NCBI GenBank assembly: GCA_963819985.1
Contig: CAWFYH010000004.1
Span: 466,713-530,712, forward strand
DNA length: 64,000 nt
Reading direction: 5' to 3'
DNA from: an uncultured Actinomycetota bacterium
GTDB lineage: Bacteria; Actinomycetota; Actinomycetes; DATJPE01
Shown here: positions 16,197-46,323 of the stretch, piece after piece
How the letters are laid out: every line of letters starts with the position of its first letter
Position numbering within the stretch: the first letter of the stretch is position 1
Translations under genes and position numbers: made by a program
Notes under the pieces: model-generated
What the model saw: the letters and a program-made list of their open reading frames with translations, nothing else
Databases searched by the model: none
What the model was told of the DNA's origin: nothing

Positions 16197-16212
16197 GAGG
16201 GGACGACTCCAA

Positions 16213-17713: not shown

Positions 17714-18505
17714 GTGCTCGTGATCAGCGTGGTCAGCCTCAAGGGTGGGGTGGGCAAGACCAGCGTGGTCCTCGGCCTGGCGGGTGCAGCCTGGGAGCGC
17801 GGCCTACGGACGCTCGTCGTGGACCTTGACCCCCAGGGCAACGCCTCCACCGTGCTGGACCCTCCAGAGGTCCGTTTCTCCGCCTCGGATGTGCTGTCTG
17901 ACCCGGGCTCCGGTTTGCTCACCCACGCCATCTCCCGCAGCGGTTGGGGGGAGTCCGTCGATGTGGTTGCCGCCGACAGCTTGCTCGAGCGGCACAACCT
18001 GTTCACGGGGCGCGCCTCCGGGCTTCAGCTTCGCGTTGCGCTCAACGGCCTCAGCGGTTACGACCTGGTGCTGATCGATGCACCGCCCTCGCTCGGTGGC
18101 CTGACTCGCAACGCGCTCGCCGCCTCTCACTACGCGCTCGTCGTGGCCGAGCCTTCGTTGTTCGCCTTGCAGGGCACTCAGTCGGCGCTCGAGGCGATCG
18201 ACATCGTCCAGGCCGACAATCTGCGTCTGCAGACGGCGGGGATCGTCGTCAACAAGCTGCGCGCGCAGTCGACCGAACACCGCTTCCGAATCGAAGAGCT
18301 CCGAGCCGCCTACGGCCTACTCGTGCTGGAACCATTGATTCCGGACCGAACGGCCATCCAGCAGGCTGAAGGGGCGTGTGTACCCGTCCAGGCCTGGCGG
18401 TCCCCCGGCGCACGCGAGGTCGGCGACGCGTTCGACGATCTGCTGGACAAATTGCTCGCACTGCGCGTCGCTGACGGCCCCCTTGCTTCGAGGAAGCACG
18501 CATGA
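17714..18505 (+). CDS. orphan ParA/MinD-family P-loop ATPase
   Basis: GTG 17714 after the photolyase stop. Deviant Walker A KGGVGKTS, then DLDPQGN, a Walker B-like region and an A-prime motif. Stop overlaps the next ORF (ATGA). Confidence 0.8.
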   Translation: MLVISVVSLKGGVGKTSVVLGLAGAAWERGLRTLVVDLDPQGNASTVLDPPEVRFSASDVLSDPGSGLLTHAISRSGWGESVDVVAADSLLERHNLFTGRASGLQLRVALNGLSGYDLVLIDAPPSLGGLTRNALAASHYALVVAEPSLFALQGTQSALEAIDIVQADNLRLQTAGIVVNKLRAQSTEHRFRIEELRAAYGLLVLEPLIPDRTAIQQAEGACVPVQAWRSPGAREVGDAFDDLLDKLLALRVADGPLASRKHA

Positions 18506-18978
18506 ACGCTGTCAACCCGCGCCCGGTCACCAACAGCCGAAACCCCGGACCCCGACCCGCGCTTCGCCGCGAAGGGGGTGAGCCGGATGGCGCCCTGGCG
18601 GTGGCCCGACCCGGGAGCGGAGCAGCCGGCGAGGAGGCCAGCCCGCAAGAACGCCGGATCAGGATTGCTCCGACGCCGGGTCAACGACGGCCCCATGACT
18701 CCGACCCATCCGCTGGCAGCCGCCCGGCGGAGGGCGAGGGGAAGGTCAAGGGAACGAAGAAGAACGCGAAGAAGGAGAAGCGCAGCAAGAAGGACAAGAA
18801 GAAGGGCAAGAAGAAGGAGAACCTCAGTGGTCTGCCATTGAGTGACGTGGTTCCCCCGGAGCTGACCGTCGCCTTGCCGAAGCCCCTACGCCGGGCACTG
18901 GCCGAGGCAGCGACCCAGCGTGACGTAGCGCCTGAGCTCCTGGTGGCTCAAGTTCTCTCGGAGTGGCTCGACCACTGA
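18502..18978 (+). CDS. lysine-rich disordered protein with a C-terminal ribbon-helix-helix (CopG/ParG-like) DNA-binding domain
   Basis: 158 aa. Central KVKGTKKNAKKEKRSKKDKKKGKKK tract. C-terminal LTVALPKPLRRALAEAATQRDVAPELLVAQVLSEWL fits a beta-alpha-alpha RHH fold. Translationally coupled to the ParA-like gene. Confidence 0.55.
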   Translation: MNAVNPRPVTNSRNPGPRPALRREGGEPDGALAVARPGSGAAGEEASPQERRIRIAPTPGQRRPHDSDPSAGSRPAEGEGKVKGTKKNAKKEKRSKKDKKKGKKKENLSGLPLSDVVPPELTVALPKPLRRALAEAATQRDVAPELLVAQVLSEWLDH

Positions 18979-18997: not shown

Positions 18998-19062
18998 ACA
19001 AGTCGAACTGTTCGATTTGCGGGTGCCCTGACCCACGAAAGTCAAACTGTTCGACTTACCGG
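18998..19062. repeat. two ~25-bp direct repeats, each containing a 13-15-bp palindrome (TCGAACTGTTCGA; GTCAAACTGTTCGAC)
   Basis: aagtcgaactgttcgatttgcggg at 18999-19023 and aagtcaaactgttcgacttaccgg at 19038-19062 (palindrome centres ~39 bp apart). They start ~20 bp after the RHH gene stop and ~120 bp upstream of the M15 peptidase gene. Confidence 0.6.
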
Positions 19063-19181: not shown

Positions 19182-19946
19182 GTGAGCAGTATCCCCGGCT
19201 CGAGGGCCGACTTGAGTCGCGTGGGCCGCGTCGCCATAGTCGCTGCTGCGTCGCTGGTGCTGGTGCTGGTCGGTCCCCAAGGTGCTTCTAGCGCGGCCTC
19301 GGGAGACGGCGAACGGTTCCCGGGAACGGCGCTGACGGTCATCGACCCCATGCCACCGAAGGCGGGGGTGAGCGTTTCCGGACCGCTGACGAGAGCAGAC
19401 GTGCCGTACTCCTATCGGCCCGGTTGTCCCGTGTCGCCGTCCCAGTTGCGGCGCGTCTCGGTGCTGCACGTGGCCTACGACGGCCGGATCGAACGCGGCT
19501 CGGTGATCGTGCGCAAGGACGCCGTGAACGATGTCAGTCATGTGTTCTCAGCGGCTTTCGAGGCGGAATTCCCGATCTTTCGAATGACCCCGGTCGACAC
19601 TTTCTACCGCAAGGGGAAGGTGTCGCCGTCGCGCTCCGACATCCGTGCGATGGAGGCGAACAACACCTCAGCCTTCAACTGCCGACCAGTGACCGGCAAC
19701 CCATACCGCTTGTCGACACACTCGGTCGGGATCGCGATCGACATCAACCCGCGGCAGAATCCGTACGTGACCAGCAGCCGGGTCTATCCAGACGGATCCC
19801 GCACCTTCCTCGACCGAGGCGACAAGCGCAAGGGGATGATCGTCAGAGGCGGAGTCATTGCCCAGGCGATGTCGTCGCGCGGCTGGCCATGGGGGGCTCG
19901 CTGGTCGCACCCCGACTATCAACATTTCTCTGCCAACGGCGGATGA
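19182..19946 (+). CDS. secreted M15-family (VanY / D,D-carboxypeptidase-like) zinc peptidase
   Basis: GTG start with a GAAGGG RBS, followed by a signal peptide. The SHSVGIAIDINP and WGARWSHPDYQHF motifs are typical of M15 peptidases. Confidence 0.7.
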   Translation: MSSIPGSRADLSRVGRVAIVAAASLVLVLVGPQGASSAASGDGERFPGTALTVIDPMPPKAGVSVSGPLTRADVPYSYRPGCPVSPSQLRRVSVLHVAYDGRIERGSVIVRKDAVNDVSHVFSAAFEAEFPIFRMTPVDTFYRKGKVSPSRSDIRAMEANNTSAFNCRPVTGNPYRLSTHSVGIAIDINPRQNPYVTSSRVYPDGSRTFLDRGDKRKGMIVRGGVIAQAMSSRGWPWGARWSHPDYQHFSANGG

Positions 19947-20722
19947 CGGGCGCGTCCGGCTCGGGATCGCGGGCTTCAGTACGCATGTCGCGACGTGTCG
20001 GCCTTGGGACGGCGCTGGTCTTCGGGATTGCCCTAACTGGAGTTCTCGTGGTCCTCGCTGCACGCCATCCGGAACAGCCGTCCACCAGTCCATCGGTTCC
20101 GGCAACACCCCCAACCAGCACCAGATCTCCCACGGTAGAACCGTCAGAAGCTGAGCCAACCCCATCACCTACCGACTCTGATCCAGCCGTCAGGGTGAGC
20201 AACCCGCGAAGGATCATGGGTCCCGATTGGGAACGAGACGGACCCGCTCACGACACCCGCGACGTGGATGAGGTGTTGACGTTGGCCGTCCCCCTGGGGT
20301 GTGTGCAACGTTCGTCCCTCCCCGAGCCGACGCGTGTCGTTGAGGACACGTTCGTCCACCGTGCGTCGTCCGTGCCCGCAGTCATGCTCCGCATGGACTT
20401 CAACACCGCGAAGGCAGCTCGACAGTTCCTGGAGCTGCGACTTGCTGATCTGCGTGCGTGCGCAGGGCAGTCCGAAGACCCCTACTCCGGCGCCCCAGCA
20501 CCCGTCACTGCCATCACCGACACAACTGTGGGGATCACGGCGACGGAGCGCACCGAGCCGTTCGCGGCGCCCAAGAAGGCCACGTGGACCGAGCTGTTCC
20601 ACGCCGACGGGAGCCGCATCTACGGGCTTGCGGTCAACGTGAGGGAAGCACGCGCGGCGACCGTCGGGCTCGAGGGGCTCGCGGCTCGGCTGGCCGCCGT
20701 ACAACGGATTGGATCCTCGTGA
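19943..20722 (+). CDS. hypothetical membrane-anchored protein with a Pro/Thr/Ser-rich linker
   Basis: ATG 19943 overlaps the peptidase stop (ATGA). N-terminal TM helix (LGTALVFGIALTGVLVVLAA), a PSTSPSVPATPPTSTRSPTVEPSEAEPTPSPT linker, and a C-terminal globular domain of unknown family. Confidence 0.5.
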   Translation: MTGASGSGSRASVRMSRRVGLGTALVFGIALTGVLVVLAARHPEQPSTSPSVPATPPTSTRSPTVEPSEAEPTPSPTDSDPAVRVSNPRRIMGPDWERDGPAHDTRDVDEVLTLAVPLGCVQRSSLPEPTRVVEDTFVHRASSVPAVMLRMDFNTAKAARQFLELRLADLRACAGQSEDPYSGAPAPVTAITDTTVGITATERTEPFAAPKKATWTELFHADGSRIYGLAVNVREARAATVGLEGLAARLAAVQRIGSS

Positions 20723-33587: not shown

Positions 33588-34772
33588 TCAGCCCTTTGCC
33601 ACGTCAACCAGATCGACGGGCGCGTCGTGGGCCACGCAGATCGCCGATGGTTTGTCCCAGGTGACCAGTCCCCACCGACGCGACGCGTCCCGGATCTGCG
33701 CCTTCGTCAACCCGGCTTCCCGCAAAGGGGCCAGCGCCCCACGGTCCTCTGCCGCACCGATGGTGGGTTGGAGACTCGGGAGAGCAGCGTCGTCTGCCTG
33801 GATTCCAGTGACGATGTATCGCACAGCAAGGCGTTCAGCGACCGGACGGAGAACCTCGAGGAGCTCTGCCTTGCAGAAATAGCAACAGCCTGCAGGCTCG
33901 CCGACGACGTCCTTGCGGGTCGCCTCAAACGATCGCGGAGCCACGTGGCGTACACCGAGGTCGTGAGCAATCTCCCGGGCCAGCTCAAGCTCTCCAGGGG
34001 CCAGCGTCTGCGAGACCACCGTGGCCGCAACAACATGCATAGGTCCGAGAGCGCGTACAGCTGCCGCCAGCACGAACGACGAGTCGGCACCGCCACTGAA
34101 CGCCACCACGACCGAGTCCAGCGCCGAGAACTCCTCCTCCAGTGCGGCCAGCTGGGTGAGGAGGAGGTGCTCGTCCAACCAGCCGGGGAAGTCCAGCAGC
34201 GTGTCGAGAACAGCGTTGGCGCCTGCGTCGACCAGTTCGGCGGCTGAAGCTGCACCCGTTGCTACTCCGACTGCGTGAACCCCCGCCTGCCTGGCAGCAG
34301 CCATGTCCCCCGGATGATCACCGACATAGATCCCAGCACCGTGCTCACGCAGGGCTTCAGCCTTGCCCTCCGCCCAACGCCAGCCCTCCAGCTCGTCCAC
34401 GTCCAGAGCAAGGTGGTCGAGATGCAGGGCAGCGTTCGGAGCGAACTTCGCGGTGACGACCAGCGAACGGCCGCCAGCCGCCCGGACGGCCGCGAGGGCC
34501 TCCGAGGCGCCTGCCAGGGCAGCCGTCGGCTCGATGGCCAGGCTGGGGTAGAGCTCCCGGAACCGATCAGCCATCGCCGGCACGAGCTCCGGCGCGAACC
34601 AGTTGGCCAGCTCGGTGTTGAGCGGTGGGCCCAGCCGGGTCAGCACGAGCGGGACATCGATGAACGTCGCCGACTCGGCTGCCAGTGCCTCCAGGACCGC
34701 TCCGATCCCCGGTCGTGAGTCGATCAGGGTCATGTCGAGGTCGAAGCCAACGACCAGCGGAGGGAATGGCAC
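33588..34772 (-). CDS. bifunctional-looking fusion: HAD-superfamily phosphatase (N-terminal) + PP-loop ATP pyrophosphatase of the LarE/TIGR00268 family (C-terminal)
   Basis: HAD motif I FDLDMTLID and motif IV GDHPGDMAAA. The C-terminal half has the PP-loop SGGADSS and the CYFCK motif seen in LarE-like sulfur-insertion ATPases. GTG 34772 is chosen so as not to overlap the divergent gene; the ATG at 34928 is an alternative. Confidence 0.65.
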   Translation of the reverse strand: MPFPPLVVGFDLDMTLIDSRPGIGAVLEALAAESATFIDVPLVLTRLGPPLNTELANWFAPELVPAMADRFRELYPSLAIEPTAALAGASEALAAVRAAGGRSLVVTAKFAPNAALHLDHLALDVDELEGWRWAEGKAEALREHGAGIYVGDHPGDMAAARQAGVHAVGVATGAASAAELVDAGANAVLDTLLDFPGWLDEHLLLTQLAALEEEFSALDSVVVAFSGGADSSFVLAAAVRALGPMHVVAATVVSQTLAPGELELAREIAHDLGVRHVAPRSFEATRKDVVGEPAGCCYFCKAELLEVLRPVAERLAVRYIVTGIQADDAALPSLQPTIGAAEDRGALAPLREAGLTKAQIRDASRRWGLVTWDKPSAICVAHDAPVDLVDVAKG

Positions 34773-34814
34773 GGGAATGAGAGTACTGACGCCACTGCGG
34801 GTAGCGTCGTTCGG

Positions 34815-37175
34815 ATGACCACGGTCCCACCGGCGCGCAGCCTGGCCGAGGCGCTGCGCGCCTGGACCGATGAGCAGTTCGTGGAACTGCTCCGAGCCAG
34901 GCCGGACCTCCTGACGCCGGTCCCCCACGACATGGCCTCCTTGGCCGCTCGAGCCAGCTCGATCCCCTCGGTGTCCCGCGCCCTGGACCAGCTCGATCAG
35001 TTCTCCCTAGACGTCCTGGAGGCGGCAGCCGTACTCCACGAACAGGTCAACGTCGAGACGTTGTCGACAGCTTTGCCCGGAGTCGACAGGGCGGCACTCG
35101 AGGATGCCCTCGTGCAGCTCCGCAGTCTCGCGCTGCTGTACGGCCCGGAGGGCGAGGAGCGGCTGGTACGCGGGGCGGTCGACGCGCTAGGTCCGACGGT
35201 CAGCGGATTGGGGCCGGCGATGGCGGCCTCGCACGCTGACGTCTCAGCGCTGGCCTCGGACCCTGCCAGGCTTCGGGAGCTCCTCGCCGAAGGGCCCGAG
35301 GGAGCCTCGGCTGCCTTGGACCAGCTCCTCTGGGGACCACCGCACGGGCGTATCGAAAACGCGCGGCGTCTGGTCAAGGATCCGGCTCAGGCAAAGACTC
35401 CGGTGGAGTGGCTGCTCGCCCACTCGTTCCTGGTTGCCGTCGGTCCGGACACCGTCGTCCTGCCCCGCGAGGTGGCGCTGGTCCTTCGTGACGGCGTGGT
35501 CCGTCGGGATGCCTCACCCCGACCGCCGATCTTGACCGGTGAACCTCGCGAGCATGTCGAGGCCTCGGCCGCCGGACAGGCCTTCAGCGCCGTGCGCCTG
35601 GTCGAAACCTTGCTGGAGGCTTGGGGGCTGGACTCCCCCGCTGTGCTGCGCGCAGGCGGGTTGGGCGTTCGCGAGCTGAAACGCACGGCTGGGCTCCTCG
35701 ATGTGGACGAGATCACCGCGGCCGCGGTCATCGAAGTTGCTCGTGCCGCCGGTCTGCTCGCCGCAGACGGGGAGCTCAATGAGGCCTTCGCCCCCACCCC
35801 CGGCTACGACCTGTGGTTGGCCCAGGAGACGGCAGACCGCTGGAGCCAGCTGGCCGCGGCATGGTTGGCTGCGCCGCGCGCGGCCGGGCTCGTCGGAAGC
35901 CGCGACACCCGCGACAAGACCCGCGCCGCACTGGGTCCCGACCTCGAGCGGCCCGCGGCACCCGACCTGCGTGCGGCAGTCCTGACCCTGCTGGCTGATC
36001 TTCCCGAGGGCCATGCTCCAAGCCCCGAGCAGCTCATGGAGCAGCTGGACTGGAGCCATCCGCGACGCGGCGGGCCGGCCCGACATGACCTCATCACCTG
36101 GACGTTGGCCGAGGCCGAGCTGTTGGGCATCACCGGGCGAGGCGCCCTCTCCCGCCCCGGCCGAGCGTTGCTCACCGAGGGGTCAGACGAGGCTGCCGAC
36201 ATGTTGGCGCCGCTGCTCCCGACGCCGCTGGATCACGTGCTGATCCAGGCCGACCTGACCGCCGTGGCGCCAGGTCCGCTGGAGTCGGCTCTGGCGGGCG
36301 AGCTGGCCCTGGTCGCTGATGTGGAGTCGACGGGTGGGGCGACGGTCTTTCGCTTCACGCCCGACTCGGTTCGGCGCGCGCTCGACGCTGGTCGCAGTGC
36401 GGCCGATCTCCACGCCATGTTGGCTGCGCGGTCCAAGACGGCAGTGCCGCAGCCGCTGACCTACCTCATCGACGACGTCGCCCGCAGGCACGGGCGGATC
36501 CGGGTGGGCGTTGCGTCCGCCTACATCCGCTGTGACGACCTGGCCCTGCTCGACGAGATGCTCGCGGATCGCAGATCGGCGACGCTGCGGATGCGTCGGT
36601 TGGCGCCGACCGTCGTGGCGGCTCAGGCACCGGTCGACCAGGTGCTTGCCGGACTGCGCTCCATGGGACTGGCGCCCGCGGCCGAGGCTCCTGACGGGAG
36701 CGTGGTGGTGCGTCGCCCCGACAGTCGACGTACGCCTCCGCGGCAGCGCCCGCCTCGCCTCGCCGTACGACAGGCCATGCCTGGCGAGAAGCTGCTGACA
36801 GCAGCCGTACGCGCCATCCGGGCCGGGGAGCGGGCCTCCACCGCACCTCGCGGACGCACGGTGGGGTCGCCGTTTGGCGGCGCTGTCCCGCGTAGCAGCA
36901 CGGCGGAGACGCTGTCCCTGCTCGGATCCGCGGTGCAGGCGGAACGGCCGCTCTGGATCGGCTACGTCGATCCGCACGGTGGGGTGACCGAGCGGGTCGT
37001 CGATCCGCTCCGGCTGGCCGGCGGCTACCTGACGGCCTTCGATCACCGCAAGCAAGAGGTCCACACCTTCGCGGTGCACCGGATCAGCGGGGTGGCCGAG
37101 CTCACCGATGGCGAAACCGTCGGCGGTTCAGGAGACAATGGACAACCCGAATCCAGCCCGGAAGGCGTCGCGTGA
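34815..37175 (+). CDS. large conserved helicase-associated protein (XPB partner, Rv0862c-like)
   Basis: 786-aa Ala/Leu-rich protein. Its stop overlaps the start of the XPB gene (GTGA). No catalytic motif recognised by eye. Confidence 0.6.
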   Translation: MTTVPPARSLAEALRAWTDEQFVELLRARPDLLTPVPHDMASLAARASSIPSVSRALDQLDQFSLDVLEAAAVLHEQVNVETLSTALPGVDRAALEDALVQLRSLALLYGPEGEERLVRGAVDALGPTVSGLGPAMAASHADVSALASDPARLRELLAEGPEGASAALDQLLWGPPHGRIENARRLVKDPAQAKTPVEWLLAHSFLVAVGPDTVVLPREVALVLRDGVVRRDASPRPPILTGEPREHVEASAAGQAFSAVRLVETLLEAWGLDSPAVLRAGGLGVRELKRTAGLLDVDEITAAAVIEVARAAGLLAADGELNEAFAPTPGYDLWLAQETADRWSQLAAAWLAAPRAAGLVGSRDTRDKTRAALGPDLERPAAPDLRAAVLTLLADLPEGHAPSPEQLMEQLDWSHPRRGGPARHDLITWTLAEAELLGITGRGALSRPGRALLTEGSDEAADMLAPLLPTPLDHVLIQADLTAVAPGPLESALAGELALVADVESTGGATVFRFTPDSVRRALDAGRSAADLHAMLAARSKTAVPQPLTYLIDDVARRHGRIRVGVASAYIRCDDLALLDEMLADRRSATLRMRRLAPTVVAAQAPVDQVLAGLRSMGLAPAAEAPDGSVVVRRPDSRRTPPRQRPPRLAVRQAMPGEKLLTAAVRAIRAGERASTAPRGRTVGSPFGGAVPRSSTAETLSLLGSAVQAERPLWIGYVDPHGGVTERVVDPLRLAGGYLTAFDHRKQEVHTFAVHRISGVAELTDGETVGGSGDNGQPESSPEGVA

Positions 37176-38824
37176 CCGACGGACCCCTGATCGTCCAGTC
37201 CGACAAGACCCTGCTGCTCGAGATCGACCACGAGCAGGCAGCAGCGTGCCGCCGCGCCATCGCGCCGTTCGCCGAGCTCGAGCGCTCACCCGAGCATGTC
37301 CACACCTACCGGATCACTCCACTCGGGCTGTGGAATGCCCGCGCGGCCGGACATGACGCGGAGCAGGTCGTCAACGCACTGCTGACCTTCAGTCGCTACG
37401 CCGTCCCGCACGCGCTGCTCGTGGACGTCGCCGAGACCATGGCGCGCTACGGCCGGCTCCGACTGCTCAAGCACCCCGTGCACGGACTTGTGCTCGAGGC
37501 CACTGACCGACCGGTGCTGGAAGAGGTCATCCGCTCGGCGAAGATGCGGCCACTGCTCGGTGAGCGCATCGATCCCGACACCGTGGTCGTTCATCCGAGC
37601 GAGCGCGGGACGGTCAAGCAGGTTCTGCTCAAGCTGGGCTGGCCCGCCGAGGACTTGGCCGGCTACGTCGACGGTGAAGCGCATCCGATCGACCTGGTCG
37701 AGGACGACTGGACGCTTCGCGCCTACCAGCACGAGGCCGTCGAAGGCTTCTGGCACGGCGGATCCGGGGTCGTTGTCCTGCCGTGCGGCGCGGGAAAGAC
37801 TCTTGTCGGAGCGGCAGCGATGGCTCGGGCGGGAGCGACCACGCTGATCCTGGTGACCAACACCGTGTCGGCCAGGCAGTGGAAGCACGAGCTCATCAAA
37901 CGCACCAGTCTCACCGAGGACGAGATCGGTGAATACTCGGGCTCCCGCAAGGAGATCCGCCCGGTCACTATCGCGACCTACCAGATCATGACCACCCGCC
38001 GAAAAGGCGTCTACGCCCATCTCGAGCTCTTCGACGAACGCGACTGGGGGCTGATCATCTACGACGAGGTTCACCTTCTCCCCGCGCCGATCTTCCGGTT
38101 CACCGCAGACATCCAGTCCCGCCGCAGGTTGGGGCTCACAGCGACGCTGGTCCGCGAGGACGGGCGCGAGGGCGACGTGTTCTCCCTCATCGGGCCGAAG
38201 CGCTACGACGCCCCCTGGAAGGACATCGAAGCGCAGGGCTGGATCGCTCCGGCCGATTGCGTCGAGGTCCGGGTGACCCTCACCGACCACGAGCGGCTGG
38301 CCTACGCGACGGCCGAGCCCGAGGAGCGCTACCGGCTGTGCGCTACCGCGCGATCGAAGACCGCGACCATCGAGGCGCTCGTCCAGCGCCACGAAGGCGA
38401 GCGGGTGCTCGTCATCGGGCAGTACCTCGACCAGCTCGACGACCTGGGCGAACGCTTGGACGCCCCTGTTCTCAAGGGCGAGACGACCGTGAAGGAGCGA
38501 GAACGACTGTTCGAGGCTTTCCGGACCGGGGAGATCCCGACCCTGGTGGTGAGCAAGGTCGCCAACTTCTCGATCGACCTTCCCGAGGCGGCAGTGGCCA
38601 TCCAGGTGTCCGGCACATTCGGGTCTCGTCAGGAGGAAGCGCAGCGACTCGGCCGGGTGCTTCGCCCGAAGGCCGACGGCCGTACCGCCCGGTTCTACAC
38701 CGTGGTCTCCCGCGACACCCAGGACCAGGACTACGCCGCCCACCGGCAGCGGTTCCTCGCCGAGCAGGGCTACGCCTACCGCATCGTCGACGCCCACGAG
38801 CTCAACACCCTCGACGCCGACTGA
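37172..38824 (+). CDS. DNA repair helicase XPB/ERCC3 homologue (SF2, 3-prime-to-5-prime)
   Basis: 550 aa. N-terminal damage-recognition-like domain. Helicase motif I LPCGAGKT, motif II IYDEVH, a RED-like motif and C-terminal motifs (TATLVREDG, QRLGRVLR). Confidence 0.88.
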   Translation: MTDGPLIVQSDKTLLLEIDHEQAAACRRAIAPFAELERSPEHVHTYRITPLGLWNARAAGHDAEQVVNALLTFSRYAVPHALLVDVAETMARYGRLRLLKHPVHGLVLEATDRPVLEEVIRSAKMRPLLGERIDPDTVVVHPSERGTVKQVLLKLGWPAEDLAGYVDGEAHPIDLVEDDWTLRAYQHEAVEGFWHGGSGVVVLPCGAGKTLVGAAAMARAGATTLILVTNTVSARQWKHELIKRTSLTEDEIGEYSGSRKEIRPVTIATYQIMTTRRKGVYAHLELFDERDWGLIIYDEVHLLPAPIFRFTADIQSRRRLGLTATLVREDGREGDVFSLIGPKRYDAPWKDIEAQGWIAPADCVEVRVTLTDHERLAYATAEPEERYRLCATARSKTATIEALVQRHEGERVLVIGQYLDQLDDLGERLDAPVLKGETTVKERERLFEAFRTGEIPTLVVSKVANFSIDLPEAAVAIQVSGTFGSRQEEAQRLGRVLRPKADGRTARFYTVVSRDTQDQDYAAHRQRFLAEQGYAYRIVDAHELNTLDAD

Positions 38825-38963
38825 ATCCTCCCTGGGCGCGCTTCACAGTGGAGTGTCCCCTTCGGCGCTTGCGATGCCACGCTTTGTCCGTTTTGGGGGG
38901 TATTCCGGCAGGTGAAGCAGGGCGCTCCGGCGGGTGAAGCACCGGGGTGGTAGACCGGAGACC

Positions 38964-39599
38964 ATGCAGCCGCATCATCTCGCTCCGGCGTGGATCGAGG
39001 TTTGCCGGGTCGTCGCAGCGCGAGATGACGTCGCCGGCACCGGCGCACGGCTCCTGGAGGCCTACGCCGACCCGAGCCGCCGCTATCACGACCTGCGCCA
39101 CCTGATGGACGTGCTCGACCACATCGACACCCTCGAGGCGGTGACACCGGACCCTGCCGTCGTGCGACTCGCGGCGTGGTTCCATGACGCCGTCTATGAC
39201 CCCGAGAGAGCTGACAACGAAGACCGCAGCGCAGACCTCGCGATCCACGAACTTTCCGGGCTGCAAGTGTCGCCAGGAGTCGTGGAGGAGGTGGCGCGCC
39301 TTGTACGGCTCACGGCAACCCACGACCCGGATCCGGACGACCGGGACGGGGCGGTTCTGTGCGACGCGGACCTGGCCGTGCTCGGCCGAGACCCTGAGGG
39401 CTACGCCTCCTACGCCGCAGCTGTGCACCAGGAGTACGCCTTCGTCGACGACGAGGCCTTCCGGACCGGCCGTACGGCAGTCCTGCAAGGACTGCTGGAC
39501 CAGCCCACCATCTATCGAACCGCCGAAGGCCTGGCCCGCTGGGAGAGCGCCGCTCGCCGCAACCTCACCAACGAGCTCGTCACCCTCGCAGCGGGGTAG
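38964..39599 (+). CDS. HD-domain metal-dependent phosphohydrolase
   Basis: H..HDLRH...AAWFHDAVYD HD motif. ATG 38964 behind GGAG is preferred over GTG 38934. Confidence 0.65.
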   Translation: MQPHHLAPAWIEVCRVVAARDDVAGTGARLLEAYADPSRRYHDLRHLMDVLDHIDTLEAVTPDPAVVRLAAWFHDAVYDPERADNEDRSADLAIHELSGLQVSPGVVEEVARLVRLTATHDPDPDDRDGAVLCDADLAVLGRDPEGYASYAAAVHQEYAFVDDEAFRTGRTAVLQGLLDQPTIYRTAEGLARWESAARRNLTNELVTLAAG

Positions 39600-39625
39600 T
39601 TCGTAACGGCCATAGCCGTCGCGTT

Positions 39626-39922
39626 TTACCCCAATCCGAGCGGGGGCGGCGGTCGGTGCTTGGGGCGGCGCAGCCCTGCGGCGGTGATCCGCGCGACCAA
39701 GATCTTGCTGGAGACCTCGATCGCTCCGGCGGTCACGACAACCGCCCGGTGCGACTCAGGAACGTCGTAGTGATCGCGATGGAAGCCTCGCTCGGGTATC
39801 CCGACCAGCGCGGCGAAAGCGTGCAGCTCCTCGAACGACTGGTCGCTGACCAGGTGACACCACAGGCGTCCACGGCCGGCCCAGATCGCCGAGTCCACGA
39901 GCACCGTCACGTCGTCAAACAC
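39626..39922 (-). CDS. DUF4031 domain-containing protein
   Basis: 98 aa (MFDDVTVLVD...WCHLVSDQSFEELHAFAALVGIPERGFHRDHYDVP) matching the DUF4031 pattern. Confidence 0.6.
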   Translation of the reverse strand: MFDDVTVLVDSAIWAGRGRLWCHLVSDQSFEELHAFAALVGIPERGFHRDHYDVPESHRAVVVTAGAIEVSSKILVARITAAGLRRPKHRPPPPLGLG

Positions 39923-39986
39923 TAGGCGCTGCTACCCTCACCCGGCTCCCCACCCGCCGTGAACGCCTCCTGGGAGGAGCCCAGCC

Positions 39987-42029
39987 ATGCCTGATGACAG
40001 CGTGCCTCGCGGCACCACCGATCCTGTCGCCACGCTCGTGCGCGAGCAGGCCTTCTTGGCCAAGGCCCGCGGCGACCTGGCAGCGATGCGTGAGCGAGTG
40101 CTGGCACTCGATGCGGTCGGAGGCGACGCCATCTCCGACGGCTACCTCGCCGCCACCCTCGAGCATCGCGCCCGCTCCCTTGTCGACAACCCCGACGTCC
40201 CGCTGTTCTTCGGGCGCATCGACTCCCAATCCGGGCGTTGGCACATCGGCCGACGGCACGTCCAAGACGAGCTCGGCGAGCCGGTAGTCGTCGACTGGCG
40301 TGCCGACGTCTCGCTCGCGTTCTATCGCGCGACCAGAACCGACCCGATGGGAGTAGCGCTGCGTCGCCGGTACGGCTTCGAAGGCGGCCGACTGACCGCC
40401 TACGAGGACGAGCACCTCACCGACACCACCGAGATCATGCAACGCAGCGCGATCCTGGCTGGAGAGATCGAACGTCCCCGCACCGGTCCGATGCGCGACA
40501 TCGTCGCGACGATCCAGCCCGAGCAAGATGCCCTGGTCCGTGCCGACCTCAGCGAGTCGCTGTGCATTCAGGGGGCCCCCGGCACCGGAAAGACAGCCGT
40601 CGGACTGCACCGCATCGCCTTTCTGGTCTACACCTTCCGTGAGCGGCTCGGTCGCAGCGGCGTGCTCGTGGTCGGCCCGAACCGAGCCTTTCTCTCCTAT
40701 ATCGCCCAAGTACTCCCAGCCCTCGGCGAGTACGAGGTGGAGCAGACAACCGTGGAGCAGCTCACCGGCGGCGACCGGTTCCGGCTGCGATCGGTCGACA
40801 CGACCGAGGTCGCGCAGCTCAAGGGCGACGCCCGGATGGCGACGGTCTTGCGCCGGGCGGTCTGGTCCCACGTTCGAGCACCGACCGAGCCGCTGATCGT
40901 GTCCGTCGGATCCCGCCGCTGGCGAGTCCCGACCTCGCAGGTCGCTCGGGCCGTCGAGGCATTGCGCGAGCGAGACGTGCGGTACGGCGCCGGCCGGGCG
41001 GTGCTGGGTCAACGCCTCGCCCACGAGGTCCTCGTCGCCATGGAGCGTCAGGGAATTGTCACAGACGACCGCGACCAGGATCGCGTAGCCCGTACGCGTG
41101 ACATGAAGGCATACGTCGACACGATCTGGCCGCGCCTGGATCCGACCAAGCTGGTGATGCGGCTGCTGGGCGAGCAGGATCTGCTCGAAGACAGTGCCCA
41201 GGGCGTTCTCTCCCAGGAGGAGATCACCGCCCTGCGTTGGGCAGACCCGGCGCGCGGCCCCGCCTCGGCTCGGTGGGCGGCAGCCGACACCGTGCTCATC
41301 GACGAGGTGGCCGACCTCATCGAGCGCACCCCGAGCCTTGGCCATGTCGTGCTCGACGAAGCACAAGACCTTTCACCCATGCAGCTGCGGGCGGTGGGGC
41401 GGCGGGCCAGCACGGGCTCGATCACCGTGCTCGGCGATCTCGCCCAGGGCACGACACCATGGGCCGCCACCAGCTGGTCCGAGGCGTTGACGCACCTGGG
41501 TCGTCCAGACACACCCGTTGCAGACCTCACCCGAGGCTTTCGGGTCCCTGCCGCCGTCATCGATTTCGCCGCTCGACTCCTGCCACACCTCGACGTGCAG
41601 CTCGATCCGCCGACGTCCGTGCGCGCCGATCCAGGATTGCTCGAAGTGGTGGCGGCCGAATCACTGGCGGCGTCGGTGGTCTCCGCGTGCCGCGCAGTCC
41701 TTGACTATCCGGGCTCGGTCGGAGTCATCTGCGCCGATGCTTTGGCCAGCGACCTAGGAGGCTGGTTGGAGGACGCGGCGCTCGAACCGGTGGTGCTGGG
41801 CGACGAGATGACCTTCGCCGCCGATCTCACGATCGTGCCGGCCTCCCTCGCCAAGGGCCTGGAGTTCGACCACGTGGTAGTCGTCGAACCAGCGGCCATC
41901 GTGGCGGCGGAGCCACGCGGTCTCAACCGGCTCTACGTCGTGCTCACTCGAGCTGTCTCCGGCCTGACCGTTGTCCACGAACGGGCCCTGCCAGCGGAGC
42001 TCAGCCCGCAACTGCTCACGATGAGATAG
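39987..42029 (+). CDS. HelD-like UvrD-family helicase (helicase IV / RNA-polymerase-associated, HelR-type)
   Basis: 680 aa. N-terminal HelD-specific domain (FFGRIDSQSGRWHIGRRHV), Walker A GAPGTGKTAV, and UvrD-like 1A/2A domains with the characteristic split. ATG behind GGGAGGAG. Confidence 0.8.
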   Translation: MPDDSVPRGTTDPVATLVREQAFLAKARGDLAAMRERVLALDAVGGDAISDGYLAATLEHRARSLVDNPDVPLFFGRIDSQSGRWHIGRRHVQDELGEPVVVDWRADVSLAFYRATRTDPMGVALRRRYGFEGGRLTAYEDEHLTDTTEIMQRSAILAGEIERPRTGPMRDIVATIQPEQDALVRADLSESLCIQGAPGTGKTAVGLHRIAFLVYTFRERLGRSGVLVVGPNRAFLSYIAQVLPALGEYEVEQTTVEQLTGGDRFRLRSVDTTEVAQLKGDARMATVLRRAVWSHVRAPTEPLIVSVGSRRWRVPTSQVARAVEALRERDVRYGAGRAVLGQRLAHEVLVAMERQGIVTDDRDQDRVARTRDMKAYVDTIWPRLDPTKLVMRLLGEQDLLEDSAQGVLSQEEITALRWADPARGPASARWAAADTVLIDEVADLIERTPSLGHVVLDEAQDLSPMQLRAVGRRASTGSITVLGDLAQGTTPWAATSWSEALTHLGRPDTPVADLTRGFRVPAAVIDFAARLLPHLDVQLDPPTSVRADPGLLEVVAAESLAASVVSACRAVLDYPGSVGVICADALASDLGGWLEDAALEPVVLGDEMTFAADLTIVPASLAKGLEFDHVVVVEPAAIVAAEPRGLNRLYVVLTRAVSGLTVVHERALPAELSPQLLTMR

Positions 42030-43440
42030 CTAGCTGACCGCGGAGGGCGATTGCGAAGGTCTCCAGGTTGGCGACGAACCGAGCGACGTCCTCGTCGGTG
42101 TGCTGCACCGACATCGTCCACTGCTCGCACTTGCCCCACGGCGGCAGAAACACGTGACCGTTGTGCTGATAGAGCCAATGCGCATTTCCCCACTGGTCGT
42201 CATAGCCGAGGAAGTCGCGATAGTCGTTGAGGCGATTGGTGAAGATGACTGCGCCCTTGGCCCCGAAGGACTGCACGTAACCTGGCAAGTCATAGCGGCG
42301 TAGCACGTCCTCGCAGCCGCTCACCTGCTTGACCCTGAGGCGCTCGAACTCGGTGTACGCCTCCTCGGTCAGCACGTCCTCGAGCATGGCCCGCGATGCA
42401 GCCATCGTCAGTGGGTTCCCGTTGAAGGTGCCGACCTGCTCATAAGTCTTGTCGGTGACGAGATTCATGACCTCAGGTACGGCACCGATGGCACCGCACG
42501 GCAGGCCACCACCCATCGCTTTGGCGATGCACACGATGTCGGGGATCACCCCTGACAGCTCGGTCGCCCCACCGAAAGCCACGCCGAAGCCCGTCTTCAC
42601 CTCGTCGAAGGCGAGATAGGCCCCGTGCGCGTGGAGGAGCTCCTTGAGGGCCTGGAGGTAGCCCGGAGGGGGCGGGATCATGCCGATGTTCATCATGATC
42701 GGTTCGACGATCATCCCGGCGATCTCGCCGCGGTTCTCGACGAGCACCTGCTCGACGGTTCCAAGGTTTCCGAACGGCACGATGATCGTCAGGTCCGCGA
42801 CGGCCTGCGGGATCGACGCAGCTGCCCGAACGGACTTGGGTCGATCCACTGGGCCGACCTGGTCGTCCTCCGGGTAGACCGAGACCTGCGCAGAGTCGTG
42901 GTGCCCGTGATAGCTGCCCTCGATCTTGATCACCTTGTCGCGCCCCGTGGCGATCCGCATCAGGTGGAATGCGTCCATGGTCGACTCAGTGCCCGAGTTG
43001 TTGTAGCGCCACAACGGGATCCCGAAGCGTCGGGTCAGCTCACGCGATACCGGGATGACATCCTCGGTCGGCTGGGCGAAGTGCGTGCCCAACTTGACCC
43101 GCCGGGTCACGGCCTCGACGATCGCCGGATGAGCATGTCCGGCCAAACCAACGCCGAAGCCGCCGTGGAAGTCCGAGTACTCAAAGCCGTCGACGTCCCA
43201 GACGCGAGAACCGGCGCCGTGACTGATCCAGATCGCTGCCGGAGGCGCGTCCTGCCAAGACGAGGCAACTCCCCCGGCCAAGGAGGCACGAGCCTGCTCA
43301 CGCAATGCCTGCGAGGCGGTCGTCCTATCCAGGACGATCTGCTCCTGCTCGACGATCAGCCGATCCATCGCCACCAGGTCCGCGTCGGGCGTGTGCTCCT
43401 GTTCTGCAACCGCGTGAGTCGACGCGTCGGTGAGCGTCAT
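42016..43440 (-). CDS. class-III (omega / GSA-aminomutase-like) PLP-dependent aminotransferase
   Basis: 474 aa with the class-III aminotransferase fold (SYHGHHD, the EVKTGFG lysine region). ATGA overlap with the upstream oxygenase gene. Confidence 0.8.
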   Translation of the reverse strand: MTLTDASTHAVAEQEHTPDADLVAMDRLIVEQEQIVLDRTTASQALREQARASLAGGVASSWQDAPPAAIWISHGAGSRVWDVDGFEYSDFHGGFGVGLAGHAHPAIVEAVTRRVKLGTHFAQPTEDVIPVSRELTRRFGIPLWRYNNSGTESTMDAFHLMRIATGRDKVIKIEGSYHGHHDSAQVSVYPEDDQVGPVDRPKSVRAAASIPQAVADLTIIVPFGNLGTVEQVLVENRGEIAGMIVEPIMMNIGMIPPPPGYLQALKELLHAHGAYLAFDEVKTGFGVAFGGATELSGVIPDIVCIAKAMGGGLPCGAIGAVPEVMNLVTDKTYEQVGTFNGNPLTMAASRAMLEDVLTEEAYTEFERLRVKQVSGCEDVLRRYDLPGYVQSFGAKGAVIFTNRLNDYRDFLGYDDQWGNAHWLYQHNGHVFLPPWGKCEQWTMSVQHTDEDVARFVANLETFAIALRGQLAISS

Positions 43441-44666
43441 GCTCGGAAGCTCCGTTCGGCGGCGAGAGAGCCCTCAGATACAGGCGGTGGGTCGGCGGAG
43501 ATGGGCGTGCCGTCGCGGTAGGCACGAGCCAGCTGTTGGGTGAACGCCTGAAGAACGATCTCGTGAAAGCTCGAGAACGGCCCAGGGACGAAGGAGCGGG
43601 CTGTCACTCCACGCTGCACCGACTCACAGGCCGTCCAGTCCTGTCGATTGGTCAGGTCCCAGAAGTCGACCGCGTAGGACGGGCTGAAGCCTTCAAGGTC
43701 GAAGGCCTCCGCCGGGAACAACCACTGGCACTCAACCTTGGTTCGGTCGGCCGCCAACGGTTCCATCCGATGGGTCATGACGTAGTCGGGATGCAGGCTC
43801 ACCAGCAGGTTCGGCGTTACCTGCACATAGATCACGTCGCGCAGCCGGCCAGGCGGGACGCTCGGGATCGGCACACCGTGCGAGACACCGTCGAGAGACA
43901 TCGTCTCGTTCCCCTCGATCAGCTCCATGTCCCCGCCGATCCAGGACCCGCGTCCGAGCATGGATTCACCCGAGGTAGGCGAGGACACGCGGCACAGCTC
44001 GGGATGGATCGACACGCAGTGGAAGCACTCGTGGTAGTTCTCCACGATCAACTTCCAGTTCGCCTCGAGTTCGTAGGCGTGCGTCGCAGCGACCATGAGA
44101 GAACGCGTGCTGTAGCGGTCGAATATCTCGCCCAACCCATCCAGATGGTCCGCCAGCGGAGCGGCGTCTCCGGACAAATTGATCATGACAAAGCCTTGCC
44201 ACTCCTCGATTCGCACGCCGTTGAGCGAGAACGGCGTCCGATCCGGAACGTCATCGCGATGCAGCGGGGGAACACCCTTCAGCTCACCTTCGAAGTCATA
44301 CACCCAGGCGTGGTAGGGGCACACGATCGCCTTGCCCGTGGTGGCTCCACCACACGGCAGCAATTCATGACCTCGGTGCCGGCAGGAGTTCGAGAAGCCA
44401 CGCAGCACGCCATCGTTTCCTCGCACCAGCAAGACACCCTCGTCCCCGACGGTGACCGCGCGCTGCTGTCCTGACTCAGCCAGCTCATCAGCACGCCCGG
44501 CGCAGACCCAGCCGCGCCGGAACAGGAAGTCCCGCTCCCACGCCAGGACCTCCGCATCGACGTAAGCGGCTCGCGGCAGCATGCTGCCGCTCGTCTCAAG
44601 GTCGAGTACGGGCTCGAGCTGGGCCGGGTCGACCGGCGCCGGGATCGACGTTTCTACGCTGCTCAT
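43437..44666 (-). CDS. Rieske non-haem iron oxygenase, alpha subunit (no beta subunit present)
   Basis: CRHRGHEL...CPYHAW Rieske motif, and a mononuclear iron site (EN.HE.FH...D) in the C-terminal catalytic domain. Confidence 0.85.
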   Translation of the reverse strand: MSSVETSIPAPVDPAQLEPVLDLETSGSMLPRAAYVDAEVLAWERDFLFRRGWVCAGRADELAESGQQRAVTVGDEGVLLVRGNDGVLRGFSNSCRHRGHELLPCGGATTGKAIVCPYHAWVYDFEGELKGVPPLHRDDVPDRTPFSLNGVRIEEWQGFVMINLSGDAAPLADHLDGLGEIFDRYSTRSLMVAATHAYELEANWKLIVENYHECFHCVSIHPELCRVSSPTSGESMLGRGSWIGGDMELIEGNETMSLDGVSHGVPIPSVPPGRLRDVIYVQVTPNLLVSLHPDYVMTHRMEPLAADRTKVECQWLFPAEAFDLEGFSPSYAVDFWDLTNRQDWTACESVQRGVTARSFVPGPFSSFHEIVLQAFTQQLARAYRDGTPISADPPPVSEGSLAAERSFRA

Positions 44667-44679
44667 TTGACGTCCCTTC

Positions 44680-46323
44680 TCAGGTCGAGCGACGGAACCG
44701 GCGGCGCTTGCGGTCGCTCAGCATCTTCGTGCTGCACAGGTAGCCAGCGATGCCGGTCACACCGCCACCGCCATGCGTGGCCGAGGAACACTGGTAGAGC
44801 CCGTCGATCGGCGTCGTGTAGTCGCTGTATCCCGGGGCCGGCCGCATGTGGAACAGCTGCTCGGGGGTGAGCTCTCCGTGGAAGATGTTGCCGCCGATCA
44901 GGCCGTACTCGTGCTCCATCTCGTAGGGGCCGATCACCTGCCGGTGCAGCACCTGCTTCTTGAAACCGGGCGCCAGCTTGTCGTAGAGGTCGATGACCCT
45001 ATCGGCATACGCAGCGAGCTCCTCGGGGTGCGACTCATCGCTCCAGGTGTGTGGCACCCATTGGGTGAACATGGACATCACGTTGGTCCCGTCGGGGCAC
45101 AGGGTCCGGTCAACGGTCGACGGGATGACCGTGTCGCTGAAGGGAGCCGTCGCCGCCTTGCCGGCGCGGGCCTCCTGGAAGGCAGTCTCCACGTACTCGA
45201 GGGAGTCGCACAGCTCGAGGACACCCGTGTAGTCCTCCGGCGCCAGGTCGGGCGCCGAGGCGAACTTCGGCAGACCTTCGATGGCCAAGTTGATCTTCAC
45301 CGTGCCGCTGCGTGACTTCCACCGCTCGATGTCCTCGACGAAGTCGGACGGAAGGTCGCGCCGATCGAGCTGACGGAGGAAAGTGATCTGCGGGTGCGTC
45401 GCAGCCACGACCAAGTCCGCCCTGATCTCGGTCCCGTCGGCCAGTGCGACCCCCACCGCCTTGCCGCCTTGCACAAGGATCCGCTCGACGGGGGCGTTGG
45501 TCCTGATCTCGGCACCGAACGATCGCGCACTGCTCGCGATCGACGCTGACACAGCCCCCATGCCACCGACGGGATAGCCCCAGGAACCCATGGTGCCGCT
45601 CATGGATCCGTCGCCGACATCGCCGATGGAGTGGTGCAGCATGACGTACGCCGTTCCGGGCTCGCACGGTCCGGCCCACGTGCCGATGACGCCGTTGATG
45701 GCCATCATCCCCTTGACCTCGGGCGACTCGAACCAGTCGTCGAGCAGGTCGGCGATGCTCATGGTGAACAAACGCGTGGTGTCTCCCACCTTGCGCACGT
45801 CGAGACCGCGCATGCCCCAGGCCAGCCTGAGCTGGTCGAGCAGGTCACCAGGCCGCTTGGAGCCGACCTTGGGCGGGCTCTTCATGAGCAGCGGCGACAA
45901 GACGTCGGCGATCCCCTTGAGCCAGGCTTCGTACTTCGGGAAGGCGTCGGCGTCCTTCGTAGAGAACTTGCTGAGCTCCTTGTGGTCGTTTGCGTGATCA
46001 CCGTTGAGCAGCATCGAACGGCCATCCGGGAAGGGGATGAAGCTCGGTCCCATCGGGATGACGTTGTAGCCGTGCTCGGGCAGACGTAGCTCCCGCAGGA
46101 TCTGCCCCGGCATCAGACTCATGACGTAGGACAACGCGGTGATCTTGAACTCCGGTCCCCACGGCGTCTCCGTTGTCGCCGCGCCACCGAGGTTGTCTCT
46201 TGCTTCCAAGACGAGTGGCTTCAGCCCGGCCCGAGCGAGATAGGCCGCCGTGACCAGTCCGTTGTGGCCCCCTCCGACGATGATCGCGTCATAGCTACCG
46301 CGTGCGGTGCCCGTGCCGGTCAC
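44680..46323 (-). CDS. FAD-dependent oxidoreductase of the phytoene-desaturase / amine-oxidase (CrtI-like) family
   Basis: 547 aa. N-terminal dinucleotide fold GGGHNGLVTAAYLARAG, and a C-terminal amine-oxidase-like region. Confidence 0.8.
   Translation of the reverse strand: MTGTGTARGSYDAIIVGGGHNGLVTAAYLARAGLKPLVLEARDNLGGAATTETPWGPEFKITALSYVMSLMPGQILRELRLPEHGYNVIPMGPSFIPFPDGRSMLLNGDHANDHKELSKFSTKDADAFPKYEAWLKGIADVLSPLLMKSPPKVGSKRPGDLLDQLRLAWGMRGLDVRKVGDTTRLFTMSIADLLDDWFESPEVKGMMAINGVIGTWAGPCEPGTAYVMLHHSIGDVGDGSMSGTMGSWGYPVGGMGAVSASIASSARSFGAEIRTNAPVERILVQGGKAVGVALADGTEIRADLVVAATHPQITFLRQLDRRDLPSDFVEDIERWKSRSGTVKINLAIEGLPKFASAPDLAPEDYTGVLELCDSLEYVETAFQEARAGKAATAPFSDTVIPSTVDRTLCPDGTNVMSMFTQWVPHTWSDESHPEELAAYADRVIDLYDKLAPGFKKQVLHRQVIGPYEMEHEYGLIGGNIFHGELTPEQLFHMRPAPGYSDYTTPIDGLYQCSSATHGGGGVTGIAGYLCSTKMLSDRKRRRFRRST

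Follow-up and report, generated by a model that had tools for sequence, protein, structure and literature searches.

The core of the helicase-rich neighbourhood described here is probably (we would put the probability at roughly 0.55) a two-gene module, in which the DNA translocase XPB is paired with a regulatory or scaffold subunit resembling p52/Tfb2 of TFIIH, and not a five-gene machine. The first-pass annotation of the window (the whole 64,000-nucleotide stretch of DNA analysed) had listed five genes in this neighbourhood, and all five exist as open reading frames. The features referred to below are as follows.

34815..37175, + strand: partner gene, 786 aa, its product p52/Tfb2-like with WYL at the C-terminus
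34815..36224, + strand: partner residues 1-470, successive helical and winged-helix-like domains
36237..36605, + strand: partner residues 475-597, a 'clutch'-like segment paralogous to the XPB N-terminal domain (Helicase_C_3; BLASTP against the window's own XPB)
36906..37094, + strand: partner residues 698-760, WYL domain (Pfam WYL; structural matches to BrxR, PafBC, CapW and DriD)
37172..37175, + strand: GTGA, overlap of the partner stop codon TGA with the XPB start codon GTG (read from the sequence)
37172..38824, + strand: XPB, ERCC3/Rad25-type SF2 translocase, 550 aa (NCBIfam NF045503; Pfam; motifs)
38964..39599, + strand: HD-type phosphohydrolase-like gene, 211 aa (phrog_19425; H...HD...D motifs)
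39626..39922, - strand: DUF4031 gene, 98 aa (PF13223), in convergent orientation to the HD gene and divergent orientation to the HelD-like gene
39923..39986, no strand: divergent intergenic region and HelD-like leader, 64 bp, between the DUF4031 and HelD-like genes
39987..42029, + strand: HelD-like gene, 680 aa, a small class II paralogue that lacks the primary-channel (PCh) loop (phmmer; motifs)
41286..41351, + strand: HelD-like junction, residues 434-455, the expected site of the PCh loop (alignment to M. smegmatis HelD)

Pairing of the XPB and partner genes

The XPB protein matched the NCBIfam model NF045503 (repair_heli_XPB) over profile positions 1-548 of 548 with a score of 864.6 bits (cut-off 610). 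It carries the Pfam domains Helicase_C_3 (residues 6-134), ResIII and ERCC3_RAD25_C, and its translation displays the GAGKT (Walker A), DEVH and RED motifs. Consistent with the translational coupling proposed in the first-pass annotation, the partner and XPB reading frames share the four bases at 37172-37175; the hexamer GGAAGG lies 7-12 nt upstream of this overlap, and an identical four-base overlap is present in the relative L083. Moreover, in 71 of 80 genome loci, covering Streptomyces, Kitasatospora, Actinacidiphila, Embleya, Streptacidiphilus and a Nanopelagicales MAG, the partner gene has XPB no more than 10 kb away; the pairing is also seen in Vallicoccus, so that the expected co-occurrence outside a single genus is borne out. 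In the Streptomycetaceae the two genes are often 0.3-7 kb apart, and in Angustibacter and L086 no partner gene adjoins XPB, which together indicate that strict co-translation is not required. The pairing is real, is translationally coupled here and in L083, and extends well beyond one genus.

Domains and predicted fold of the partner

Pfam Helicase_C_3 matched partner residues 475-597 (9e-44), and BLASTP aligned the same segment to the N-terminal domain of the window's XPB with 28% identity over 124 aa (E 1e-6). A WYL domain (PF13280) was found at residues 698-760 (1e-11), its score of 44.9 bits being above the cut-off of 21.8. The structure prediction that had been called for in the first-pass annotation gave a confident AlphaFold model of the 786-aa protein as a single chain (pLDDT 91.7). 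When this model was compared with solved structures using Foldseek, TFIIH p52/Tfb2 provided the top matches (∼510 aligned columns, E 4e-7), followed by the N-terminal region of XPB and then by WYL-domain proteins that bind single-stranded DNA; winged-helix proteins were also among the matches. The TM-scores are low (0.13-0.31) and the rmsd is high because the domain arrangement differs.

Many winged-helix DNA-binding folds match the N-terminal part of the partner, and such folds are common.

The conserved gene pair of XPB and a dedicated partner had previously been likened to archaeal XPB-Bax1, and the presence of a conserved gene adjoining XPB, as in archaea, is all that favours a helicase-nuclease pair here. 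However, Bax1 is an XPG-related nuclease that sits on the XPB thumb motif and HD2, whereas no nuclease family or fold was found for the partner among the listed matches from Pfam, NCBIfam and structure searches, the last of which gave p52/Tfb2, the XPB N-terminal region, WYL and winged-helix folds. In addition, the XPB of the archaeon A. fulgidus appears to be without the N-terminal domain seen in the window's XPB. The Bax1-like nuclease was rejected on this basis, and its probability is close to negligible. The p52-XPB pair is the better analogy, because p52 is the best structural match and because partner residues 475-597 are paralogous to the XPB N-terminal domain, as is the 'clutch' of p52.

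The same matches could be read to mean that the partner acts chiefly as a WYL-type transcription factor comparable to PafBC, DriD, BrxR or CapW, which would respond to single-stranded DNA by turning on xpb or a damage regulon, and would not be a stoichiometric XPB subunit. The WYL domain itself, the winged-helix folds of the N-terminal part, the inserted genes that split the partner from xpb in many Streptomyces, and the Foldseek matches to PafBC 6sj9 (∼380 columns, E 9e-5), BrxR, CapW and DriD, the last two of which were solved bound to single-stranded DNA, all point in this direction. Those sensors share the C-terminal WYL fold; however, they are HTH-WYL(-WCX) transcription regulators, and the ones matched here have 190-640 residues, whereas the partner has 786 residues, some 120 of them paralogous to the XPB N-terminal domain, and uses WYL to end a p52-like scaffold. 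A WCX domain was not detected in the partner, p52 outranks the WYL regulators among the structural matches, and the partner stop codon overlaps the XPB start codon here. A regulator in place of a subunit is unlikely, although a WYL-regulator role and a role as a p52-like subunit are compatible and not exclusive.

When residues 1-470 were modelled alone, p52 was still ranked first, including 6tru, the crystal structure of the p52 N-terminal half, which favours a p52-like subunit. Several observations count against one, among them the low TM-scores and the commonness of winged-helix folds noted above. The similarity of the N-terminal half on its own is weak (E 0.02-0.3, probability 0.5-0.96), and no structural match was obtained at E ≤ 0.001. 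A sequence-level link to p52 is absent: none of 16 partner-family members matched Pfam Tfb2 (PF03849), even at E 10, and a partner-family profile searched against PDB sequences found neither a p52 nor an XPB chain. The clutch-like domain could also be an independent duplication of the XPB N-terminal domain.

Comparison with TFIIH and a proposed XPB-p52-like module

In the XPB-p52(-p8) unit of TFIIH (human GTF2H4/ERCC3; yeast Tfb2/Ssl2), the p52 clutch and the XPB N-terminal domain form a pseudo-symmetric dimer, which recruits XPB and through which p52 activates the XPB ATPase. The N-terminal domain is common to bacterial and eukaryotic XPB, and the window encodes an XPB translocase of this kind. 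The clutch (MD2) domain with the XPB N-terminal-domain fold is present in the partner and, as in p52, follows a run of helical, winged-helix-like domains. According to the authors of the p52 structure, the p52 NTD, MD1 and MD2 have no significant structural homologues; a bacterial p52 had previously been reported as not found, and no partner of bacterial XPB has been known so far. There are also clear differences. The partner is ∼320 residues longer than p52, lacks a match to the Tfb2 family and would bind XPB by analogy with p52; the C-terminal domain of p52 dimerises with p8/Tfb5, whereas the partner terminates in a WYL domain that is absent from p52. Moreover, no p8, p34, p44, p62 or XPD context was identified at the locus, and the bacterial XPB is without the eukaryotic C-terminal extension.

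In the proposed module, XPB, a double-stranded-DNA translocase, would be co-expressed with the 786-aa partner, the clutch domain of which may pair with the XPB N-terminal domain as a pseudo-symmetric heterodimer, like p52 in TFIIH. This heterodimer would keep the two RecA lobes of XPB ATPase-competent, and so could stimulate its ATPase, while the winged-helix domains of the partner would touch duplex DNA. The WYL domain, possibly a bacterial addition to a p52-like build, might have as its ligand the single-stranded DNA of a bubble, a lesion or a stalled complex, and in this way target or switch on the XPB motor.

The characterised bacterial XPB is Rv0861c (ercc3) of M. tuberculosis, which belongs to a different order of Actinobacteria. 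The adjoining gene, Rv0862c, is uncharacterised, and we take it to belong to the same Helicase_C_3 and WYL family as the partner. In the literature examined, Rv0862c appears in gene lists only. On its own, M. tuberculosis XPB has weak activity and must be in molar excess over its DNA substrate, which would be expected if an activator were missing, and deletion of ercc3 leads to rifampicin hypersusceptibility. The broader proposal that Rv0862c-type actinobacterial proteins are true homologues of TFIIH p52/Tfb2, binding and activating XPB via a clutch-N-terminal-domain heterodimer, is a tentative one, to which we give slightly less than even odds. If it is correct, bacteria possess the XPB-p52 core of TFIIH, tied to a WYL sensor of single-stranded DNA, which would bear on the origin of this part of the transcription and repair machinery of eukaryotes and would explain the poor activity of isolated bacterial XPB. 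A p52-like partner widespread in Actinobacteria would be a direct and testable reason for the weakness of XPB alone, and suggests a candidate second gene behind the rifampicin phenotype of M. tuberculosis without ercc3. It would also provide a bacterial model, made of two proteins, for the XPB-p52 regulatory unit, defects of which cause human disease.

The HelD-like gene and the wider neighbourhood

On sequence grounds the HelD-like protein is of the HelD class, matching M. smegmatis HelD (6yxu_H) at E 2e-71 (phmmer) and displaying DWR at residues 103-105 (D103-W104-R105), Walker A GAPGTGKT and Walker B VVLDEAQ. This part of the first-pass annotation stood; the suggested kinship with HelR did not. 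Residues 34-451 align to M. smegmatis HelD residues 32-452, with the clamp-opening domain aligned over 261-447, and residues 434-451 align both to M. smegmatis 435-452 and to the stretch that starts at M. smegmatis residue 506, with no counterpart of M. smegmatis residues ∼453-505 in the phmmer alignment. The PCh loop, which is required for rifampicin resistance, comprises M. smegmatis HelD residues 448-503, with its tip at 482-DDED-485. The protein also scored far below the NCBIfam cut-offs for HelR_2 (337/1100), HelD_MYCSM (300/1051) and HelR (275/750).

The rifamycin-associated element (RAE) is a 19-bp palindrome upstream of HelR, and an RAE-type repeat had been anticipated in the HelD-like leader. 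No inverted repeat was found in 39880-40010, and a search of the 64-bp intergenic region for symmetry, rather than for the RAE consensus, revealed no palindrome with 8-bp arms and ≤ 1 mismatch. The same 64 bp gave no sigma-70 consensus match, no Rfam match and an RNA fold z-score of -0.38. With neither a PCh loop nor an RAE-type palindrome, and with scores below the family cut-offs, the gene was rejected as a rifamycin-resistance HelR and should not be annotated as one.

Like the class II HelD/HelR proteins (M. smegmatis MSMEG_2174, M. abscessus MAB_3189c, S. venezuelae SVEN_6029), the HelD-like protein has an N-terminal DWR domain, a split SF1 ATPase and a clamp-opening domain; unlike them it is 56 residues shorter (680 versus 736 aa) and has no PCh loop, acidic tip or RAE. 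It resembles the 'small' Streptomyces isoforms SCO4195 and SCO4316 (680-681 aa), which are listed but unstudied in the literature. It should still bind RNA polymerase via its N-terminal and clamp-opening domains and, lacking a PCh loop, would be unable to extend to either the active site or the rifampicin pocket.

The five genes might instead form one transcription/repair-coupling island, in which XPB, the partner and the HelD-like ATPase act jointly on stalled RNA polymerase. Indeed, the same genes recur near each other in other actinobacterial genomes, which is not chance: 67 of 80 loci have the HelD-like gene no more than 10 kb from the partner; it lies on the XPB strand in 58 loci with both genes and is < 1 kb downstream of XPB in ∼40 of these 58, and a loose XPB...HelD-like...HD/DUF4031 order is seen in Angustibacter, L085 and L086. 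The rifampicin phenotype of the ercc3 deletion also fits. However, synteny across the actinobacterial lineages is loose and of variable spacing, and so is weak evidence for a functional island. Variable genes (a two-component system, a protease, transporters, a cyclase) lie in between, the order of the HD/DUF4031 pair differs among lineages, and the HelD-like gene of L087 adjoins dnaB with no XPB nearby, while M. tuberculosis has XPB and most of its strains lack HelD. The genes here are separate units, one of them on the opposite strand, and the flanking housekeeping genes are likewise syntenic, such that shared ancestry suffices to explain the neighbourhood. A joint five-gene function is accordingly doubtful. 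In the favoured two-gene reading, the HD-type phosphohydrolase, DUF4031 and small HelD paralogue would be separate transcription units that are nearby through old synteny.

An anti-phage defence island, in which a WYL regulator would work alongside SF2 and SF1 helicases, is suggested by domain-level PADLOC matches to WYL (2e-8), to a PbeA-like helicase core for XPB (4e-24) and to a GajB-like profile for the HelD-like protein (3e-8). These matches concern generic domains, however, and do not add up to a full system. XPB belongs to a curated equivalog family, and the genes sit in core chromosome, where the cold-shock protein, DUF3027 and DUF2530 flanks are conserved across orders and GC content shows no anomaly, making defence highly improbable.

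The remaining two genes were both present, one with a revised start and the other with a revised strand. The HD gene most likely starts at ATG 38964, a change from the first-pass start. It matched phrog_19425 ('phosphohydrolase') over its whole length (4e-29) and displays H...HD...D metal-ligand motifs (YHDLRH, FHDAVYD), with a sub-threshold Pfam HD score (15.3 bits, cut-off 22); a homologue is found in 35 related loci. The DUF4031 gene (PF13223, 7.7e-31; 106.6 bits, cut-off 25.6) also matched phrog_4887 (function unknown) and was reassigned to the minus strand, only 64 bp from the divergently transcribed HelD-like gene. Other lineages also have the HD and DUF4031 genes as a convergent pair.

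Gene content of the locus

The five genes named in the first-pass annotation are all present in the window, as follows:

34815-37175, plus strand: 786-residue protein, the proposed partner of XPB, with Pfam matches to Helicase_C_3 (residues 475-597) and WYL (residues 698-760)
37172-38824, plus strand: XPB, matching a curated equivalog model at 864.6 bits (cut-off 610)
38964-39599, plus strand: HD-type phosphohydrolase-like protein, start most likely the ATG at 38964
39626-39922, minus strand: DUF4031 protein
39987-42029, plus strand: HelD-like protein, 680 residues, HelD class

The GTGA overlap of the partner and XPB reading frames is real; the DUF4031 gene, which had been implied to lie on the plus strand, is in fact encoded on the minus strand. 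It forms a convergent, tail-to-tail pair with the HD gene, and this arrangement is kept in every related locus that shows both genes, from Streptomyces to Angustibacter, while the placement of the pair relative to the HelD-like gene varies. The HD gene product scored below threshold on Pfam HD and matched a phage phosphohydrolase family (4e-29). GC content is 64-70% across the window, and composition does not change abruptly at the locus. The window proteins have their nearest relatives in actinobacterial assemblies and, after these, in Motilibacter, Angustibacter, Nanopelagicales and Streptomycetaceae; the source is not a Mycobacterium. A reading of the cluster as a defence system was discarded, PADLOC giving generic domain matches only. 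Overall, the first-pass annotation had observed the locus largely correctly, and its interpretation needs two changes: the partner is to be compared with p52 and not with Bax1, and the HelD-like protein lacks the loop characteristic of HelR proteins that displace rifampicin.

Divergent from the partner gene, 33588-34928 (minus strand) encodes a HAD-type phosphatase fused to a LarE-like ATP-dependent sulfur transferase domain, the latter matching TIGR00268 at 157 bits (cut-off 150). Past the HelD-like gene, the minus strand (42016-46323) encodes a class III aminotransferase, a Rieske oxygenase of the glycine-betaine-monooxygenase type and an FAD amine oxidase; the same trio occurs in the related locus L083.

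Predicted structure of the proposed XPB partner

The partner had been likened to Bax1, the nuclease that pairs with archaeal XPB and contacts its thumb motif and HD2. An AlphaFold2 model of the partner, built from an alignment of 117 sequences, was confident (pLDDT 91.7, pTM 0.82) and was compared by Foldseek with 350,542 PDB chains. The top rank fell to the TFIIH subunit p52/Tfb2, with E-values of 4e-7 to 1e-4, a probability of 1.0 and ∼ 510 aligned columns, which cover nearly the whole of p52. These matches include 6trs_A/B, explicitly p52, together with chains D or 2 in numerous TFIIH entries from human and yeast, which were taken to be p52 from their length and from the chain naming of 6NMI. 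The N-terminal part of XPB came next in the ranking, and then the WYL proteins PafBC, BrxR, CapW and DriD. It is thus p52 that the model resembles instead of Bax1, and no nuclease was among the structural matches listed.

Partner residues 475-597 belong to the same Pfam family as the N-terminal domain of the window XPB and align with it at 28% identity over 124 residues (E 1e-6). As judged from this alignment, the segment is a paralogue of that domain. The relation is of the clutch type, paralogy to the XPB N-terminal domain being the defining feature of the p52 clutch. In order to see whether the likeness to p52 extends past the clutch, residues 1-470 were modelled separately (pLDDT 96.4). 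Nine of the top 12 matches of this model were p52, among them 6tru, a crystal structure of its N-terminal half, with E-values of only 0.02-0.3. Since the authors of the p52 structure reported its NTD, MD1 and MD2 to be without significant structural homologues, the ranking of p52 in first place would carry some weight, although it is statistically not firm. None of 16 members of the partner family scanned matched Pfam Tfb2, and a family profile run against PDB sequences found no p52 or XPB chain; predicted structure is the sole basis on which p52 homology of the partner is proposed.

In addition to the N-terminal domain, the window XPB has an SF2 core and shows the GAGKT, DEVH and RED motifs. 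The N-terminal domain is common to bacterial and eukaryotic XPB, and A. fulgidus XPB appears to be without it. In human TFIIH, the N-terminal domain of XPB and its structural homologue, the clutch of p52, form a pseudo-symmetric dimer that recruits XPB, and the XPB ATPase is activated by p52/p8 via this interface. An XPB with a p52-binding domain, encoded beside a p52-like protein, makes a coherent picture. The mechanism with most support is a bacterial module of XPB and a p52-like protein with a WYL sensor, in which we infer that the partner would bind and activate XPB; we put the odds of this reading slightly better than even (about 0.55). According to the M. tuberculosis XPB paper, neither a p52 homologue nor an XPB complex had been found in bacteria, and the paper reported that isolated M. 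tuberculosis XPB is active only in molar excess over DNA. Our literature search found no report on a bacterial p52-like protein or on the function of Rv0862c, the gene adjoining M. tuberculosis XPB (Rv0861c). Deletion of M. tuberculosis ercc3 leads to rifampicin hypersusceptibility, which is an experimental hint at a connection of XPB with transcription stress.

The HelD-like protein and its leader

Assignment to the HelD class, as first annotated, was borne out by alignment with M. smegmatis HelD (E 2e-71), which spans the N-terminal domain (D103-W104-R105), Walker A (GAPGTGKT), the clamp-opening domain and Walker B (VVLDEAQ). A HelR-type reading, with a role in rifamycin resistance, was not supported. 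The alignment skips from M. smegmatis residue 452 to 506, and the absent stretch is the primary-channel loop (residues 448-503, tip 482-DDED-485), which in HelD folds into the RNA polymerase active site and which M. abscessus HelR requires for rifampicin resistance. The HelD-like protein scores far under the HelD/HelR family cut-offs. It has 56 residues fewer than M. smegmatis HelD and is the same size as the ‘small’ Streptomyces isoforms SCO4195 and SCO4316 (680–681 residues), which are expressed but unstudied.

The leader of the gene is a 64-bp intergenic region (39923-39986) shared divergently with DUF4031. An inverted repeat of the rifamycin-associated element (RAE) type, proposed as something to look for here, was not found by a general palindrome search, which did not use the published consensus; the leader gave no Rfam match and no significant RNA fold (z-score −0.38). 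In S. venezuelae, the RAE occurs only upstream of rox and helR (SVEN_6029). Given this restriction, the missing loop and the leader without an inverted repeat, the HelD-like gene is, by its sequence, not HelR. Most likely, the protein would bind RNA polymerase and open its clamp but not extend to the active site. A near-palindrome of 19 bp at 39477-39495 was rejected as an RAE: it sits within the HD gene, on the far side of DUF4031, which is on the opposite strand, and is expected by chance because 76 such palindromes occur in the 64 kb.

Streptomycetaceae orthologues (L001-L080) share a conserved leader 40-170 bp upstream of their HelD-like genes (for example, L022 at about 15540-15640). It comprises, in order, a TAnAAT-like box, a hairpin (CCTCC-loop-GGAG) with covariation at its closing pair, GCCGCCG and a near-palindrome of 19 bp, CCGGACGGAAACCGGNCGG; CGGAAACCG is present in 53 of 70 regions upstream of these genes. 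This leader has no Rfam match, its palindrome has no match in the window, and it may be an undescribed regulatory element. An extended form of the palindrome was found at 23 metagenomic loci, 21 with a HelD-like or XPB gene and two on short contigs. The palindrome was rejected as an RAE, BLAST against plasmids yielding chance matches and the extended form being confined, in metagenomes, to the XPB/HelD-like context.

The neighbourhood in other genomes and elsewhere in the window

A genome scan gave 80 loci, mostly from Streptomycetaceae, which dominate the synteny sample. Within 10 kb of the partner, 71 loci have XPB, 67 the HelD-like gene and 20 DUF4031; the HD gene was present in 35 loci, a count to which the Angustibacter locus L081 also contributes. 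A homologue of the HAD/LarE fusion, mostly upstream, lies within the same distance in 67 of the 80.

In the related locus L083 (65% partner identity), gene order is identical to the window, including the four-base overlap and the downstream metabolic genes; XPB and the HelD-like gene are less than 1 kb apart in about 40 of 58 loci. Elsewhere, the gap between partner and XPB ranges from 53 to 7424 bp, and four genes separate the two in Vallicoccus. In Angustibacter and L086, XPB precedes the HelD-like gene by ∼ 6 kb, unrelated genes intervene, there is no adjacent partner, and HD/DUF4031 are further downstream. In L087, the HelD-like gene adjoins dnaB. In L085, XPB is reduced to a 91-residue remnant (3758-4033, 6 kb upstream of the HelD-like gene, ERCC3_RAD25_C domain only), which suggests decay of an XPB gene in its syntenic place. 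Synteny also takes in the housekeeping genes on the flanks (DUF2530, DUF3027, a cold-shock protein and the HAD/LarE fusion). The neighbourhood is old but loosely organised, and such loose synteny agrees better with inherited chromosomal order than with an operon-like island.

Elsewhere in the window, two intergenic copies of the palindrome AAGTCRAACTGTTCGAYTT (18999-19018 and 19039-19057, 40 bp apart) resemble paired operator sites; the flanking reading frames, 18502-18978 and 19424-20722, have no Pfam match. A DNA photolyase of 701 residues (15571-17676, plus strand) carries an unassigned N-terminal extension of ∼ 250 residues, its photolyase domains starting only at residue 252.
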